A DNA stretch of 64,000 nt, taken from positions 85,350-149,349 of the forward strand of contig JBFMDU010000005.1 in NCBI GenBank assembly GCA_040753815.1. The letters run 5' to 3'. The position numbers were made by a program, and so were the translations under genes. The notes under the pieces are model-generated. The model was not told the DNA's origin. It did no database searches and saw only the letters and a program-made list of their open reading frames with translations. Of this stretch, positions 17,507-23,852 are shown piece by piece. Positions within the stretch are counted from its first letter, which is position 1; each line of letters opens with the position of its first letter. This stretch comes from Chloroflexota bacterium (GTDB lineage: Bacteria; Chloroflexota; Dehalococcoidia; GIF9; JBFMDU01).

Positions 17507-18264
17507 GAGCCTCCTCCTCTATTAGTGTGGCACCTGATACAAGATAGCACAGGTCGCGGTAGTTTGTAAGACCTGCCCCGCCTGCTATGTTGCCTTACCC
17601 CCATGACATCTGGCTGTATTCGCAAGTTAACAAATAATTAATATTTGTGTGATAAAATGAGCACATTGAAAGCTTACCGGAGATAGAACCGGTGACTCAT
17701 TTCTCGTCTGACACCTGGAGGTAACAACTCCCATGCTGAACCATCGGCATATGCGGCAGGTCATAAGCGCCATCAGTATCATTACCCTGTTAACATTAAG
17801 CCTGCTGTTATCGAGTCCGACATCTGCGGCGGCAACCATCAATGTATCCCCCGCCAGCGGTACCGTCGGAACAAGCGTGACGGTAACTGGAACCGTCGAT
17901 GCTAACGGAAACACCTTTGAAATACAGTGGGACGGGGCGGCTATTACCAGCGGATCCGCTCCGTCAGGAAGCACCAACATCACCTCTACCTTCAGCATCC
18001 CGAACACCACGGGAGGCGTGCATACCGTTACCCTGAAAGACACGGCAACACAGGTCACAGCATCAACAACCGTCACGGTCAACCCGGCAATAACAGTAAC
18101 CCCTGCAACCGGCTCGGTGGGCACGATTATCACTGTTAATGGCTCGGGGTTCAACGCCAGCGAGACCGGTGTTACCATCAACTACGACGGAACGCCCACA
18201 AATGCTGTTGTAACCGTCAGCTCTTCAGGGAGCTGGTCCACTACTTTCAACATCCCGGACAGCC

Positions 18265-18374
18265 CATCCAGCCTAACCCACTCTGTCAGCATCACACGCA
18301 CTATTATGCCCAGCAATACGGCACGGCGTGGTCTATGCATCCAGCCTAACCCACTCTGTCAGCATCACACGCAC
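18265..18374. repeat. 37-bp perfect direct repeat flanking a 36-bp unrelated insert
   Basis: CATCCAGCCTAACCCACTCTGTCAGCATCACACGCAC at 18265-18301 and 18338-18374; insert TATTATGCCCAGCAATACGGCACGGCGTGGTCTATG at 18302-18337. Confidence 0.95.
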
Positions 18375-18975
18375 AGCTACCGGCGCCAGCATACCTCCCA
18401 GCCAGAACCTGACCGTCACCCCCAGCTTTACCATTACTCCAACTACCGGAGTTGTCGGCACCAGCATCACCGCCACAGGTAAAGGCTTCGCCGCCAATGA
18501 AACTGGCATCAACGTATCCATCAACGGCGAAAGTGTTAAAACCGGCCTTACCGCAGACACCAACGGAAGCTGGCAAAGCACCTTCGCCTTACCCGATAGC
18601 CCCGGCGGCACATGCAGCATCGGCGTTTATGGTTCGACAACGGGCTCTGGTGCTATAACACCCCACGCTTTCACAGTCGTTCCTCAAGTCACGATGAGTC
18701 CGAGTTCCGGCAGCGCCGGTACCCAGGTTACGGTAACCGGCACCGGCTTCGGAGCCGGGGAGACCGGCATCACCGTAATGTTTGGCAACATCGCTGTAGG
18801 CCAGGGGATTACCGCAAACACGAAAGGAAGATGGACCACCACATTCATCGTACCGATAGGAAGCGGCGGAGGGCAGGTTGTAAACGCCTACGGAAGTATT
18901 ACCAGCGCTTCTCAGGTCGCGGGGTTAAGTTTCAATGTCACAGCGCGCATCGCAGTCAGCCAGAACTCAGGAACG

Positions 18976-19796
18976 GTCGGCGACACGGTAAATGTCACCG
19001 GCCAGAGCTTCGGCGCTAACGAGACTGGCATCAGCATCCTCTACGACGGCTCCCCGGTCGCCAGCAATCTCACCGCCAGCGCCACCGGCGACTGGACCGC
19101 TACCTTTACCATCCCACCAAGCACCACTGGTAATCACCGTATCGGCGCCTCCGGCGCCTTCACCGCCGCCGCTTCAGTGCCCGAGCAGGGATTCTCGGTC
19201 ACCCCCAAGCTCTCCATCACCCCGGCTACCGGCGCCGTCGGCACCCAGATAACCATAACCGGCACCGGCTTCGCCGCCACCAGACCAGTGACCCTCTCTT
19301 ACGATAACCAGCCTGTTACCCCAACCTCCGGTACCACCCAAAGCACGGCTCAGGGCAACATCACCGCTACTTTCAACGCCCCCAAGAGCAAGGGCGGCGT
19401 CCATAAAATCATAGTCAGCGACGGCACCAACCAGCGCGACAGCGACTGGACCATGGAAAGCACCCCACCTCCACTACCTGCCCTCTCCAAACCTTCCAAC
19501 GGCGAACTCATCGGCTGGTTCGGCGATGACCCTGTCACCTTCAAATGGTCCGAGATCCAGGACCCCTCCGGTGTCTCCTATACCCTTCACGTCTCAACCG
19601 ATGCCTCCTTCTCTACCCTGGCTATTAAACAAGAGGGCCTTACCAAACCCGAATTTACCACCAGCCCGCTCCCGCTGGGCGTCTACCACTGGCGCGTCAG
19701 GGCTATCGACGGCGCCGATAATACCTCCGACTGGACGCCGGTCATGTCCGTCCGCGTCGGCATTATGCCCTTGTGGGCCTTCATCGCTATCGCAGC
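18976..19796 (+). repeat. Near-identical 821-bp segment shared with 21276-22096
   Basis: Constant 2300-bp offset at both ends with scattered substitutions only; flanking parts of the paralogs are much more diverged. Confidence 0.9.
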
Positions 19797-20108
19797 AGCG
19801 CTTATATGCGTCATGGCGATAGTCATTTTTACACTGATGCGCCGCCGCTCATCAGCACCTTGGTAGAGAACTACACAGGGTTTATTCCAACCGGTCAGGA
19901 CCGGTGAGCCGATGCTCTCCACCTTAAACCACAGCACCAGCCAGCCTTTTCAGGGAAACTGTCATTTCTCCGGCACCGCCCGCGAACTGGCAGAAATCAC
20001 TGAACCATCCGCTGAGCTATCCGTTATTAGTGGTAGAATAATGTCAATAACGTTGACCGGAATCAGTATCGTCTGGTTCGCCTCACCATAGTCTGGGAGG
20101 ACAACATC

Positions 20109-23100
20109 ATGCGGAATATAAAAACCACCTGGGCCAGGCTGATAGCCAGTCTGGTTCTAGCCGCAATTGCCACAGCGCCTCTGCTCTTCACGGCGCCGAC
20201 GCAAGCGGTAACAATCATGATTTCACCGACCAGCGGCCCCGTCGGCACTACGGTGACGGTGACCGGTGCGGTCGATGGTAATGGGAACTCCTATGATGTG
20301 TTGTGGGATAATGTAGTTGTCCAAAACGGGACGGCTGCGGCGAGCAGTGTTATTGTATCTACCGCCATCACCGTGCCGGTGACAAATGGCGGCACGCACA
20401 CCGTCGCGCTGAGAGATGCCTTAACTCTAAACTCTGTTTCGACAACCTTCACTGTTACCCCGACCATCACAATAACACCGACCAGCGGCACCGTCGGCAC
20501 CACCATAACCATGAATGGTACCGGCTTTGATAACGGTGAGACCGGTATCTCGATTACCTATAATGCCAACACAATCAAGAGCAATATTTCTGCAGATACC
20601 ACAGGGAGCTGGTCAACTACCTTCAACATCCCGGACAGCCCTTCCGGTGCGACACACGTTGTCGGCGTATCACGTACTGCCACCGGAGCTACTGCTCCAA
20701 CCAGTCAGAACCTGACAGTCGTACCCAGTTTCACAGTAACCCCGACCAGCGGCACAATCAGCACCAGCATTACTGTCACTGGCAAGGGTTTCGCCGCCAG
20801 TGAAACCATAACTATAACAATCGACGATGAGAGCGCAAAGACTGGAATTGCCACAGACACCAACGGTAGCTGGCTGAGTACCTTTGCCTTCCCCGACAGC
20901 CCGGGCGGCGTACACAACATCGGCGTCTACGGCTCGACCACGAGCACCGGCACTGTGACTGATAAGACCTTCACCGTAAGTCCCGGCATCACGGTAACCC
21001 CCAGCACCGGCACGGTCGGCACCCAGGTTACGGTAACCGGCACCGGCTTCGGAGCCGGGGAGACCGGCATCGTTGTAACTTTCAATGCTATGTCTGTCAG
21101 CTCCGGTATTACCGCCTCAACCAAAGGCCGATGGACGACAACCTTCCAGGTGCCGTCTGGCGCCGGCGGTGCACACAGCATATCGGCCTACGGCAACACG
21201 ACGCCGGCCTCGGGATTAGCAACGGCGACCTTTGGCATAGTCGCCCGCATCACCGTTAACCCTGCCAGTGGAGTAGTCGGCGACACAGTGAATGTCACCG
21301 GCCAGAGCTTCGGCGCTAACGAGACTGGCATCAGCATCCTCTACGACGGCTCCCCGGTCGCCAGCAATCTCACCGCCAGCGCCACCGGCGACTGGACCGC
21401 TACCTTTACTATCCCTCCAAGCACCACCGGTAATCACCGCATCGGCGCCTCCGGCGCCTTCACCGCCGCCGCCTCAGTGCCCGAACAGGGATTCTCTGTC
21501 ACCCCCAAACTCTCCATCACCCCGGCTACCGGCGCCGTCGGCACCCAGATAACCATAACCGGCACCGGCTTCGCCGCCGCCAGACCAGTGACCATCTCTT
21601 ACGATAACCAGCCTGTTACCCCAACCTCCGGTACCGCCCAAAGCACCGCTCAGGGCAACATCACCGCCACCTTAAACGCCCCCAAGAGCAAGGGCGGCGT
21701 ACACAAAATCACAGTCAGTGACGGCACCAGCCAGCGCGACAGTGACTGGACCATGGAAAACACCCCACCTCCACTACCTGCCCTCTCCAAACCTTCCAAC
21801 GGCGAACTCATCGGCTGGTTCGGCGATGACCCTGTCACCTTCAAATGGTCCGAGGTCCAGGACCCCTCCGGTGTCTCCTATACCCTTCACGTCTCGACCG
21901 ATGCTTCCTTCTCTACCCTGGCTATTAAACAAGAAGGCCTCACCAAACCCGAATTTACCAGCGGCCCGCTCCCACTGGGCGCTTACCACTGGCGCGTCAA
22001 GGCTATCGACGGCGCCGATAATGCCTCCGACTGGACGCCGGTCATGTCCGTCCGCGTCGGCATCATGCCCTTGTGGGCCTTCATCGCTATCGCAGCCCTG
22101 GTCTTCGCTATTCTTGGCGCCGTTATTTTCCTCCTCGTCGGCCGGAAAGGCCGGAGCGTACCAAGAGCGAAGCGGGAAAAGTTACCGAAGGCAAAACCCA
22201 GGCGCATAAGCGAACCGGAGTTAGAGGCTGAACTGAGGCCTGTAGAGGAAGCGGAGGAGGTGAGTGAAGGAGAACCCGAACCAACGCCACCACCGCCGCC
22301 ACCACCCAGAGCGGTGCCTAAGACACCAGCCAAGGCTGTACCACCCCACACGACTGCGCCTCAGCCATCTCCTGCTCCATCACCTCAACCCGAGATAGAG
22401 CCCGACCAGGCTGAGACCGAAGAAATCGTAATCAAAGCGGTATCCGGACTCACCGATACCGATATCAGCCTTCTCGCCCAGCGTGAAGACCTGCGGCAGC
22501 GCGGGCTCACCCTGGCCAAACTCTATAGAATCTGTTCCCGTCTTGAGCGAGAGGGTAGACTCGTCCGCGACCGGAACGACCGCTATCAGCCATCGGGCAT
22601 ACCGGCCGGTGGTAAACCAACCCCACCAGAACCACCGCTGGCAAAAGCGCCGGTACCACCACACGAGGGGATTGTCGCCGAAGAGCCAACCAGGCCGCCG
22701 TCGAAGCCAAAGCCGGTGGCCCGGCCGGCGCCATCCGTGGAAAGTCCACCCGGACTGGTGAAGAAGGCGCCGCCGCCAGAAGAGCCATCACTGCCGCCAC
22801 CACAGGCTGACACGTTAGACCCGGAGACCGAACAACTGGTAGCCGACTCCGTAATCGGCATGAGCGATGCCGATATAACTCAGGTCGCCCAGTCCGAACT
22901 TATCCGCTCACGCGGACTAACCCTAGCCAGGGTCTACAAGATTGTCGGCCGGCTGGAGAAAGGCGGCCAACTGGTCCGTGACGATAATGGCCGCTATCAA
23001 AAGGCAGCAGGCAAAGCCATACCGAAACCACCAGCTAAAGAAGAGACCTTCCCAACCTGGGAGAAACCCGGTGCGGAGGAGAATGAAGCGATTGAAACGG

Positions 23101-23852
23101 TTGGCTTGGAAGACTACAGGCCGCTTGAGAAACCACCAACCGCTAAGGAAACCAAGCCACAGCTAAAACCAGCCGGCACAACTGAGGAAATTTTCGATGT
23201 CGTGATCGAGGCGATAGTTAACCAGACCGATGCCGACATACCACAGATCGCCCAGCAACCTGAACTCAGGTCACGCGGCCTGAACCTGGCCAAAATATAT
23301 CAGATAACCAGCCGGCTGGAGAAAGATGGCAGAATAATCCGTGACGACGCCGGTTATTACCGGCGGGCAACCGGTAAACCCGAGAAGACAGAACCCCCAA
23401 AACGCTTCACTACTATCGAATGGACAGGCAAACTGCCCTGGCAACAATGGTCGCAGTTCTACGCCCAGGTGCTATCAGCATACCTTACTGAAGACGTGCT
23501 GAGTATCGACGTCTACTTCAAAGTAGGTCCCGAAGCCAGTATATCCAGCGAAAAGCTTGAAGAAACCCGAGCGGCGCTCAGAGAACTCAAACTGAGCGAC
23601 GAAATGACAGCGGAACGCCGAGCAGACGCGCCAGCGCGGCTCTCAAGAGTCGAACGGTCAGGAAACCTGCCGTGGCAGAGCTGGGAGGCTTTCTTCGCCA
23701 AAGTGCTCTCGCGGTTCCTGTCCGAGACCACTCTCTCTATCTCTGTCAGCGTGAAGGCAGTCTCGAAGGCCGGCTTCAATCAGGCCCGGGTTGATGGGAC
23801 TACCGCCGCTCTAAAAGGCCTGGCCCTTACCCCTGACCTCAAGGTTTCTTAA
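20109..23852 (+). CDS. Single-pass membrane protein: 6 Ig-like + FN3-like ectodomain, TM, Pro-rich linkers, 3 wHTH-like repeats, 2 C-terminal alpha/beta repeats
   Basis: 1247 aa; signal peptide; repeats IT(V/I)xPxxGxVGTxxTVTGxGF; TM LWAFIAIAALVFAILGAVIFLLV; 3x RGLxLAxxYxIxxRLExxGxxxRD; 2x (W/R)xGxLPWQxWxxFxAxVLSxxL. Confidence 0.88.
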   Translation: MRNIKTTWARLIASLVLAAIATAPLLFTAPTQAVTIMISPTSGPVGTTVTVTGAVDGNGNSYDVLWDNVVVQNGTAAASSVIVSTAITVPVTNGGTHTVALRDALTLNSVSTTFTVTPTITITPTSGTVGTTITMNGTGFDNGETGISITYNANTIKSNISADTTGSWSTTFNIPDSPSGATHVVGVSRTATGATAPTSQNLTVVPSFTVTPTSGTISTSITVTGKGFAASETITITIDDESAKTGIATDTNGSWLSTFAFPDSPGGVHNIGVYGSTTSTGTVTDKTFTVSPGITVTPSTGTVGTQVTVTGTGFGAGETGIVVTFNAMSVSSGITASTKGRWTTTFQVPSGAGGAHSISAYGNTTPASGLATATFGIVARITVNPASGVVGDTVNVTGQSFGANETGISILYDGSPVASNLTASATGDWTATFTIPPSTTGNHRIGASGAFTAAASVPEQGFSVTPKLSITPATGAVGTQITITGTGFAAARPVTISYDNQPVTPTSGTAQSTAQGNITATLNAPKSKGGVHKITVSDGTSQRDSDWTMENTPPPLPALSKPSNGELIGWFGDDPVTFKWSEVQDPSGVSYTLHVSTDASFSTLAIKQEGLTKPEFTSGPLPLGAYHWRVKAIDGADNASDWTPVMSVRVGIMPLWAFIAIAALVFAILGAVIFLLVGRKGRSVPRAKREKLPKAKPRRISEPELEAELRPVEEAEEVSEGEPEPTPPPPPPPRAVPKTPAKAVPPHTTAPQPSPAPSPQPEIEPDQAETEEIVIKAVSGLTDTDISLLAQREDLRQRGLTLAKLYRICSRLEREGRLVRDRNDRYQPSGIPAGGKPTPPEPPLAKAPVPPHEGIVAEEPTRPPSKPKPVARPAPSVESPPGLVKKAPPPEEPSLPPPQADTLDPETEQLVADSVIGMSDADITQVAQSELIRSRGLTLARVYKIVGRLEKGGQLVRDDNGRYQKAAGKAIPKPPAKEETFPTWEKPGAEENEAIETVGLEDYRPLEKPPTAKETKPQLKPAGTTEEIFDVVIEAIVNQTDADIPQIAQQPELRSRGLNLAKIYQITSRLEKDGRIIRDDAGYYRRATGKPEKTEPPKRFTTIEWTGKLPWQQWSQFYAQVLSAYLTEDVLSIDVYFKVGPEASISSEKLEETRAALRELKLSDEMTAERRADAPARLSRVERSGNLPWQSWEAFFAKVLSRFLSETTLSISVSVKAVSKAGFNQARVDGTTAALKGLALTPDLKVS

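Follow-up and report, generated by a model that had tools for sequence, protein, structure and literature searches.

The window analysed here, a stretch of 64,000 nucleotides from a Dehalococcoidia (Chloroflexota) genome, carries on its + strand, at 20109..23852, an open reading frame that is unbroken over 1247 codons. A GGGAGG ribosome-binding site lies 7 nt 5' of its ATG. The 1247-aa product is a single-pass membrane protein comprised of a signal peptide, six IPT/TIG repeats, an FN3-like domain, a TM helix and a cytoplasmic tail, in which three ~60-aa repeats on Pro-rich linkers are followed by two ~70-aa repeats. This anatomy, with the homologies described below, can be assigned with high confidence. 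The features of the gene and of its neighbouring paralog are as follows.

17733..19866, + strand: tail-less paralog with the same ectodomain family and TM; two frames, split by a 73-bp duplication
20109..20207, + strand: signal peptide, aa 1-33, from the hydropathy scan and direct reading; hydrophobic core aa 8-30, likely cleavage after TQA
20208..21767, + strand: six IPT/TIG-like Ig repeats, ~86 aa each, extracellular, from PF01833 (E 1.4e-26) and the motif count
21768..22052, + strand: FN3-like membrane-proximal beta-sandwich with a YHWRVKAIDGADN motif; sub-threshold matches only
22062..22148, + strand: single TM helix, then a basic juxtamembrane stretch, from the hydropathy scan; 82% identity in one ortholog (L002)
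22149..22418, + strand: linker 1, Pro/Glu-rich, 28% Pro by composition; poorly conserved (17-36% identity with gaps among orthologs)
22419..22598, + strand: winged-helix repeat 1 (WH1), aa 771-830, from the repeat alignment; orthologs 51-60% identical with at most 3 gapped positions
22599..22829, + strand: linker 2, 34% Pro, from composition and ortholog comparison
22830..23012, + strand: winged-helix repeat 2 (WH2), aa 908-968, from the repeat alignment and ortholog comparison; weak DUF7343/HTH_24 matches
23013..23183, + strand: linker 3, Pro/Glu/Lys-rich, from composition and ortholog comparison
23184..23375, + strand: winged-helix repeat 3 (WH3), aa 1026-1089, from the AF2 model and Foldseek (the copy that was modelled)
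23403..23621, + strand: RRM/ferredoxin-like domain 1 (RRM1), aa 1099-1171, homologous to the HmaC/DUF499 C-terminal domain by HMM
23640..23849, + strand: RRM/ferredoxin-like domain 2 (RRM2), aa 1178-1247, the more diverged copy, from the same HMM and the AF2 model

A hydropathy scan of the product shows a hydrophobic signal peptide at aa 8-30 and a single TM helix at aa 652-680. The tail is assigned to the cytoplasm because RKGRSVPRAKREKLPKAKPRR stands directly after the TM helix, following the positive-inside rule. The linkers of the tail contain 18-34% proline, and the spacers are 57-90 aa long. An assembly chimera was ruled out, since a second species has the same FN3-TM-tail junction at 64-67% identity and in the same gene neighbourhood.

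The first-pass annotation had described an Ig ectodomain, and PF01833 (IPT/TIG) indeed matches it above the gathering score (92.7 bits against a cut-off of 20.9 bits, with five stretches above the cut-off). Counting motifs gives five strict repeats and a degenerate one, six in all. For the FN3-like domain, Ig_Rha78A_N and Big_13 match only below threshold. The Pfam score, the N-terminal hydrophobic signal and the single downstream TM place the protein among the IPT/TIG surface proteins. A family of this kind with a C-terminal TM anchor has several copies in nearly every genome of this Dehalococcoidia order, and its FN3-like domain and TM are conserved together in 111 of 121 genomes of the order. 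The signal peptide, TIG repeats, FN3-like domain and TM are common to these proteins and the one studied here. Over its membrane-proximal 226 aa, identity is 33-45% across the order and rises to 88% with the neighbouring paralog. Ordinary members, however, end 1-7 residues past the TM, while this protein runs on for 567 residues. No earlier description was found of a type-I surface protein whose long cytoplasmic tail strings winged helices together like beads.

The paralog is read in two ORFs, 17733-18482 and 18328-19866, with an exact 37-bp repeat at 18265-18301 and 18338-18374. Over 821 nt it is 95.5% identical to 21276-22096 of the window. Its earlier interpretation as a decoy or co-receptor was dismissed, given that the tail-less form is the norm of the family across the order and that this copy is split by a frameshift. 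The remaining neighbours include adenine deaminase, hpt and B12-salvage genes, that is, purine and B12 salvage functions that give no functional hint.

The tailed form is very restricted. A survey of the architecture across Chloroflexota, which the first-pass annotation had proposed, places it in one genus and two metagenome fragments, a tiny family. The winged-helix profile found nothing in 400 other Chloroflexota genomes, and a search for the full tail in 400 other Dehalococcoidia genomes returned only three HmaC-type RRM matches. Word-indexed protein searches yielded the protein itself and the two metagenome fragments, and the tail domains have no other copy elsewhere in the genome. Four diverged orthologs (41-67% identity) agree in how many domains they have and in what order; within the domains conservation is 45-85% and gaps are almost absent, while the linkers drift. 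Since WH1, WH2 and WH3, as well as RRM1 and RRM2, are each orthologous position by position across species, the comparison, read at the level of aligned sequences, shows long-term purifying selection on the tail.

The three central repeats share 42-49% mutual identity and 22 invariant columns. In the AF2 model of repeat 3 (pLDDT 88.7) the secondary structure elements are H5-16, H21-27, H31-35, H40-53, E56-58 and E64-66, an H1-H2-H3-hairpin topology that corresponds to the definition of a winged helix-turn-helix. Against the PDB, the top 50 Foldseek matches of this model are all winged helices (probability up to 0.98, TM 0.5-0.62, E of at least 0.046), and they include RPA32C, Fur/Nur/Zur, Z-alpha, IclR, Cdc53 WHB, MCM WH, PadR and Stn1. 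Both the topology and the fold matches thus bear out the earlier proposal of three wHTH-like repeats, which had also been located to within a few bases of the coordinates measured here. The best fold matches mix protein-binding winged helices (RPA32C, Cdc53 WHB, Stn1) with DNA binders; the top one is the protein-binding C-terminal WH of RPA32.

At the sequence level the repeats stand apart from curated families. The best scores against wHTH families (PadR, AbiEi_4, DUF7343, HTH_24, TrmB) are 12-24 bits, below the cut-offs of 22-28, and NCBIfam and PHROG give zero family matches. The weak matches that do occur are all to DNA-binding wHTH families (AbiEi, PadR, Fur, TrmB), and the profile searched against the sequences of solved structures retrieves only Fur and PadR, weakly (E of at least 0.046). 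Net charges of WH1, WH2 and WH3 are +2, +1 and -2, i.e., near neutral; in each the N-terminal half is acidic and the recognition-helix/wing half basic. The conserved polar residues are a TDxDI motif, Q29 and E51.

Between themselves, the two terminal repeats align gaplessly over 70 aa with 40% identity (BLASTP E = 6e-20). No curated family in Pfam, NCBIfam, PHROGs or PADLOC matches the pair, and BFVD holds no viral look-alike at E <= 1e-3. According to AF2 and DSSP, both copies adopt a ferredoxin-like/RRM fold (pLDDT 95.5), and the best PDB matches of the pair are a designed ferredoxin-ferredoxin protein, ACT, PII and SecDF P4 (E of at least 2e-3); for the WH and RRM models alike, Foldseek gives no match at E <= 1e-3. 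A canonical RNA-binding RRM exposes the aromatic RNP1 and RNP2 motifs on beta3 and beta1; here the conserved aromatic residues are W11, W20, F23 and Y24.

A resemblance of these repeats to the C-termini of DUF499 proteins had been suggested in the first-pass annotation, and it is confirmed by searches in both directions. A phmmer search of 1.8 billion proteins with the terminal domain produced 294 matches at E <= 1e-3, almost always situated at the very C-terminal end of the protein. Full-length matches are PF04465/HmaC proteins, in which the domain is likewise at the extreme C-terminus (E 1.7e-7 to 1.8e-6); 25 of 150 proteins found in this way score as HmaC, and the N-terminal parts resemble HmaC in 64 of 97. 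Conversely, an HMM built from 146 HmaC-type tails finds both copies, the first at 82.4 bits (E 1.7e-18, Z = 1.8e9) and the second at 50.9 bits (E 1.2e-8). In a tree of RRMs, the nine copies from the membrane family fall on one side of a branch (UFboot 100, SH-aLRT 57), and RRM1 and RRM2 retain their position-specific orthology. On these sequence grounds, the RRM domains of the membrane family and the C-terminal tail domain found in HmaC/DUF499 (BREX-related) AAA+ ATPases have one common origin. Judging from the models, the tail domain is better called a ferredoxin-like/RRM domain, the fold that a 2026 paper gives for DUF499 (PMC12839542).

HmaC and MtsA are AAA+ ATPases of the Hma systems, which are DUF499-centred and related to BREX (PMC12839542, PMC8565338, bioRxiv 10.64898/2026.09.23.753747). 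At its C-terminus DUF499 carries wHTH units and an RRM, for which a role in recognising the nucleic acid of invaders is proposed (PMC12839542). The likeness to the protein studied here is confined to the tail: the ~70-aa terminal domain is homologous in sequence and keeps the motif WxGxhPxQxWxxFY...ALRELxL, the fold is the same, and in both cases a flexible Pro-rich linker and winged-helix units come before it. The remainder differs. The N-terminal STAND/ORC-Cdc6-type AAA+ ATPase and the wHTH / alpha+beta / wHTH body of DUF499/HmaC are absent, the N-terminal 650 aa being IPT/TIG, and the protein is anchored in the membrane. PF04465 does not match the whole protein at E <= 1 or pieces of the tail at E <= 10, nor does the PADLOC HmaC/DUF499 model (PDLC00662) match the whole protein at E <= 1e-3 or the cytoplasmic tail at E <= 10. 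The RRM is a tandem duplicate here and single in all 147 other hits. Finally, the WH repeats are unrelated in sequence to any HmaC segment; a derivation from HmaC wHTH units was rejected, as a 12-repeat profile aligned with hhalign reaches a probability of 1.4% for the last wHTH of HmaC and 0.3% for the full-length protein.

The host genome differs from those with Hma systems in lacking the methylase and DUF499 genes. The operon of such systems combines DUF499 with a DUF1156 N6-methyltransferase and a Swi2/Snf2 helicase-nuclease. There is no operon of this type at the gene, and neither DUF499 (PF04465) nor DUF1156 (PF06634) was found in the 1.98-Mb, ~90% complete genome, where the controls were positive. 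The link to a resident DUF499 defence system, which the first-pass annotation had raised, is therefore baseless. The remainder, absent from the assembly, could still contain an Hma locus. Hma loci with the RRM tail are present in other Dehalococcoidia.

Two known types of membrane protein invite comparison. FtsK has a membrane anchor, a long Pro/Gln-rich linker and a C-terminal gamma winged helix that binds KOPS DNA. Both proteins thus combine a membrane anchor, a long low-complexity linker and a cytoplasmic winged-helix domain, so that FtsK may serve as an analogy for a membrane-to-DNA tether; no sequence similarity to FtsK was detected. Unlike FtsK, the protein lacks a translocase motor, has type-I topology with a large ectodomain, and carries three WHs and two RRMs. 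In regulators of the ToxR/CadC type, a cytoplasmic, OmpR-type wHTH at the N-terminus adjoins the membrane, and the periplasmic sensor is C-terminal. They too are single-pass membrane proteins with a cytoplasmic winged helix, but the protein studied here is reversed in orientation, has no Trans_reg_C match, and carries winged helices of another family in multiple copies with long spacers.

What might such a tail do? The most likely reading, held tentatively, is a predicted membrane-tethered, multivalent binder of nucleic acid, probably DNA. In one genus, an IPT/TIG surface gene has acquired a cytoplasmic extension of ~570 aa, and this long, flexible tail would tether nucleic acid (DNA being the likeliest) to the membrane. 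The proposal draws on three observations: the WH domains have a basic recognition-helix/wing half opposite an acidic N-terminal half and match, weakly, only DNA-binding wHTH families; the only other setting in which the RRM occurs is a DNA-loading ATPase, where it is likewise carried on a flexible Pro-rich linker; and the two RRMs, modelled as packed together (a packing read from pTM), may mimic within a single chain the two RRMs of a DUF499 dimer. The DUF499 protein MtsA, which loads the methylase on DNA, is found mainly as a dimer in solution and has flexible tails that were not resolved; on its own it gives no DNA shift in EMSA (bioRxiv 10.64898/2026.09.23.753747). Given a genome without Hma genes, the ligand of the RRM should be general (nucleic acid or the RRM itself) rather than an Hma partner. 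The near-neutral WH domains, the EMSA result for MtsA and the protein-binding winged helices among the best fold matches speak against the DNA tether. A more specific version, to which only a small probability is given, is a transmembrane coupler that joins the proteinaceous cell surface to nucleic acid, in which the RRM would read DNA or RNA autonomously or pair with itself, and the chromosome, or DNA entering at the surface protein, would be held at the membrane of a wall-less bacterium.

The same protein-binding fold matches suggest another function, namely a protein-protein scaffold, which is possible but less probable than the nucleic-acid tether. Here, the WH and RRM domains would bind peptides or proteins, in the manner of the winged helices of RPA32C, cullin WHB or ESCRT-II, and recruit cytoskeletal, division or secretion factors to sites marked at the surface, linking the proteinaceous envelope of wall-less bacteria to the interior. 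The RPA32 match at the top of the list, the high rank of Cdc53 WHB, Stn1 and MCM WH, domains that are weakly basic at most, and the long Pro-rich spacers typical of scaffolds are consistent with this, as are the TDxDI motif, Q29 and E51, which fall outside the classical pattern of DNA contacts. However, there is no partner candidate, neither a conserved operon partner nor another protein of the genome with these domains, and the weak WH sequence matches point to DNA-binding families. It is improbable that the protein is a membrane-bound one-component regulator, whose ectodomain senses a surface event and whose WHs bind operators while tethered or after regulated proteolysis. The single-pass topology with cytoplasmic wHTH domains and the ToxR/CadC precedent would fit, but the tail is C-terminal with no OmpR-type wHTH, and its three WHs are set 57-90 disordered residues apart and from the membrane, unlike in any operator-binding regulator. 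Furthermore, the ectodomain is that of a generic structural surface protein that occurs in multiple copies and has no ligand-binding sensor domain, and no site-2 protease or target operon is linked to the gene.

A role in defence surveillance is less probable still. According to this explanation, the surface protein would be a phage receptor or entry site, and the WH and RRM modules would capture or flag entering DNA or dock a defence complex. This would agree with an RRM that elsewhere is all but confined to the HmaC defence ATPase, where it is proposed to recognise invasive nucleic acid (PMC12839542), and with the Hma loci of other Dehalococcoidia, but neither the protein nor the genome has a DUF499, DUF1156 or any PADLOC match, the neighbourhood is housekeeping rather than a defence island, and the protein has no effector domain. 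Least probable, and very improbable, is an evolutionary accident, in which a mobile hmaC 3' module (Pro-rich linker and RRM) and the WH repeats were fused by recombination and are drifting with little function. Stubs of hmaC and ORFs that encode only its tail are common, another Dehalococcoidia genome has a stub that contains stop codons, and the tailed family is very rare. Against this stand the intact reading frame, the four orthologs that keep their domains while the linkers drift, and the position-specific orthology of the WH and RRM copies, which shows long-term purifying selection.

The HmaC/DUF499 RRM is thus encountered here with neither the ATPase nor the methylase and, to judge from the assembly, with no Hma locus; it is duplicated and under purifying selection. 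This shows that a domain whose other occurrences are nearly all at the end of anti-phage DUF499/HmaC ATPases can work outside a defence system. Its retention without the Hma machinery argues for a self-sufficient module whose partner is not defence-specific. The C-terminal tail of DUF499/HmaC/MtsA occurs in thousands of BREX-related defence loci and is too flexible for cryo-EM; the RRM pair offers a small, simple construct for finding what the domain binds. If the coupler reading is true, the family would give a first access, independent of Hma systems, to the ligand of the unresolved DUF499/MtsA tail. If the protein does link the envelope and the nucleoid, it would bear on the cell organisation of the wall-less Dehalococcoidia.

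The long gene is a single uninterrupted reading frame, with a GGGAGG ribosome-binding site upstream of its ATG, and its tail-less paralog lies just upstream. The features discussed here are as follows:

17733-19866, + strand: tail-less paralog, read as two overlapping frames, 17733-18482 and 18328-19866
18265-18301 and 18338-18374: exact 37-bp direct repeat within the paralog, with 36 bp between the copies
20109-23852, + strand: long gene, product of 1247 residues
21276-22096 and 18976-19796: 821-nt block shared by the long gene and the paralog, 95.5% identical

Hydropathy gives the long-gene protein an N-terminal signal sequence and one transmembrane helix (aa 652-680). Because a strongly basic stretch directly follows the helix, the C-terminal 567 residues should be cytoplasmic. 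The ectodomain consists of six ~86-aa repeats, with an IPT/TIG match of 92.7 bits (well over the Pfam cut-off), and a membrane-proximal FN3-like domain. Repeat alignment recovers the cytoplasmic-side repeats where the first-pass annotation had placed them: three of ~60 aa (aa 771-830, 908-968, and 1026-1089; 42-49% identity, 22 invariant columns) and two of ~70 aa (aa 1099-1171 and 1178-1247; 40% identical, gap-free, E 6e-20). Proline makes up 18-34% of the sequence between them.

The three shorter repeats had been guessed to be winged helices, and structure prediction bears this out. An AlphaFold2 model, built on an alignment of all three repeats of four orthologs (12 copies), has a pLDDT of 88.7 and shows H1 and H2, then a long H3 and a beta-hairpin wing. 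The best 50 Foldseek matches in the PDB are all winged-helix domains, among them RPA32C, Fur/Nur/Zur, Z-alpha, IclR, Cdc53 WHB, MCM, DtxR, and PadR, with probabilities up to 0.98 and TM-scores of 0.5-0.62, every E-value being at least 0.046. Sequence-profile matches are sub-threshold, and all go to wHTH families (DUF7343, AbiEi_4, PadR, HTH_24, TrmB, and Fur). As modelled, the repeats are thus winged helices. Their profile has no other match in the same genome or in 400 other Chloroflexota genomes, and the family appears, from these searches, to be private to the long-gene protein. A relationship to part of HmaC, the DUF499 (PF04465) AAA+ ATPase of Hma defence systems, was ruled out, since hhalign finds none to any HmaC segment.

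The two terminal repeats had been likened to the C-terminus of DUF499 proteins, and here sequence searches in both directions and the predicted fold agree; the domain has already been named as RRM/ferredoxin-like. A phmmer search of 1.84 billion representative proteins with the 153-aa tail gave 294 matches at E <= 1e-3, and in 142 of the best 150 no more than 10 residues follow the domain. The full-length matches (911-981 aa) are PF04465/DUF499 proteins that score 387-427 bits on the PADLOC HmaC model. Outright HmaC matches account for 25 of the best 150; of the 97 matches in which 40 or more residues precede the domain, 64 resemble the HmaC C-terminal region, most of the others being short pieces. 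By sequence, then, the matches are HmaC proteins or fragments thereof. Conversely, an HMM built from 146 HmaC-type tails matches only the two terminal repeats in the six-frame translation of the whole window (82.4 and 50.9 bits; E-values of 1.7e-18 and 1.2e-8 at library size). The tandem was modelled with AlphaFold2 from a 60-row alignment, with a pLDDT of 95.5 and a pTM of 0.84, the latter suggesting that the two domains, RRM1 and RRM2, pack together. Its PDB matches are generic ferredoxin-like folds (a designed ferredoxin-ferredoxin protein, ACT, PII, and SecDF P4). The model agrees with a 2026 comparative study, which places additional wHTH units and an RRM/ferredoxin-like domain at the end of DUF499 ATPases and proposes that these together recognise invading nucleic acid (PMC12839542). 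In MtsA, the DUF499 protein of the MANTIS system, the tails are too flexible to resolve (bioRxiv 10.64898/2026.09.23.753747).

Several library proteins show other arrangements. P0092 (307 aa, metagenome), an unrecognised 232-aa N-terminal part with a single RRM tail, joins the tree by a long branch and lies nearer to the membrane-family RRMs than any other outside sequence; it may be another non-HmaC host. In P0120 (572 aa, metagenome), residues 1-127 are a piece of RNA polymerase beta (Rpb2 domain 6), joined straight to an HmaC C-terminal region with its RRM tail; most likely this is a chimera of assembly or gene calling. In many HmaC proteins, including P0100, P0150, P0073, P0083, and P0005, the last wHTH is separated from the RRM's Pro-rich linker by an Ig-like beta-sandwich (motif W.ATGG...G.F.AG..EG), in agreement with an FnIII-like insert that has been reported for Type-2 BR systems.

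The membrane-proximal TIG, FN3-like, and transmembrane module is present in 111 of the 121 genomes of the order, mostly in several copies (range 1-9) and in reading frames of ~500-640 aa; this surface-protein family may make up a major part of the envelope. The same genome carries a third paralog, more distantly related (G000:C23:36416-37069, - strand; 38% identity over the module, 617-aa frame). Since the protein ends 1-7 residues past the transmembrane helix in the eight related loci with a readable gene end, the tail-less form is the ancestral, ordinary one. The neighbouring paralog, previously likened to a decoy or co-receptor, is one of these ordinary forms, its frame shifted by a 73-bp insertion-like duplication. 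The shared 821-nt block covers the last TIG repeat and the FN3-like domain and stops a third of the way into the transmembrane helix; elsewhere, identity between the two genes is at most about 74%. This suggests recent gene conversion.

The tail itself recurs in only a few places: a Dehalococcoidia MAG that is the genus's one further species (64-67% identical, syntenic, cut by a contig end) and two 1.7-kb metagenome contigs from JGI, both with 5'-open frames. The domain order, three winged helices and then two RRMs, is the same in all four orthologs. Identity across the domains is 45-85%, almost without gaps, while the linkers drift (17-57% identical, with indels), which indicates purifying selection on the domains; that the tail is a near-neutral fusion seems very improbable. 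Of 155 RRM copies placed in a tree, the membrane family's nine all lie to one side of a branch (UFboot 100, SH-aLRT 57), with RRM1 and RRM2 as separate sub-groups. This is consistent with the domain having been acquired once and then duplicated in tandem before the orthologs split.

In the tail, five small folded domains would be strung along spacers that are long enough to reach tens of nanometres into a small cell. Our tentative preference is for a membrane-tethered, multivalent binder of nucleic acid, probably DNA, because the C-terminal half of each winged helix (recognition helix and wing) is basic, the wHTH families that it weakly matches in sequence bind DNA, and the only other context of the RRM is a DNA-loading ATPase. 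A tethered transcription factor is an unlikely form for the tail to take. Against nucleic-acid binding, however, the net charge of the winged helices is near neutral, protein-binding winged helices are among their best fold matches, and MtsA alone does not shift DNA (bioRxiv 10.64898/2026.09.23.753747). A protein scaffold is a possible alternative, though a rather doubtful one. The RRM tandem may reproduce within one chain the RRM pair of a DUF499 dimer, as MtsA is predominantly dimeric in solution (same preprint).

The first-pass annotation had proposed a transmembrane sensor or a membrane-tethered nucleoid or defence adaptor, which is only partly supported, and had suggested looking for a DUF499 system in the genome. 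The long-gene protein has no AAA+ module and no DUF499/HmaC body, and neither PF04465 nor PF06634 (DUF1156) was found in the 1.98-Mb, ~90% complete genome, with control genomes positive. The gene is flanked by adenine deaminase, hpt, and a B12-salvage operon, as is the ortholog. A defence-linked role, in which the protein would sense DNA at the cell surface, is quite improbable. Hma loci carrying the same tail domain occur elsewhere in Dehalococcoidia, so a donor was available. In another genome of the class, one locus (L004; G236:C111:14026-14346) matches the HmaC tail domain only, has four stop codons, and looks like the orphaned 3' remnant of a decayed hmaC; many of the library's short tail-only ORFs may have the same origin. 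Judged by its sequence, the long-gene protein combines known parts in a rare new architecture, and its main value is that a DUF499 tail domain is found here, as far as the genes show, outside any defence operon.
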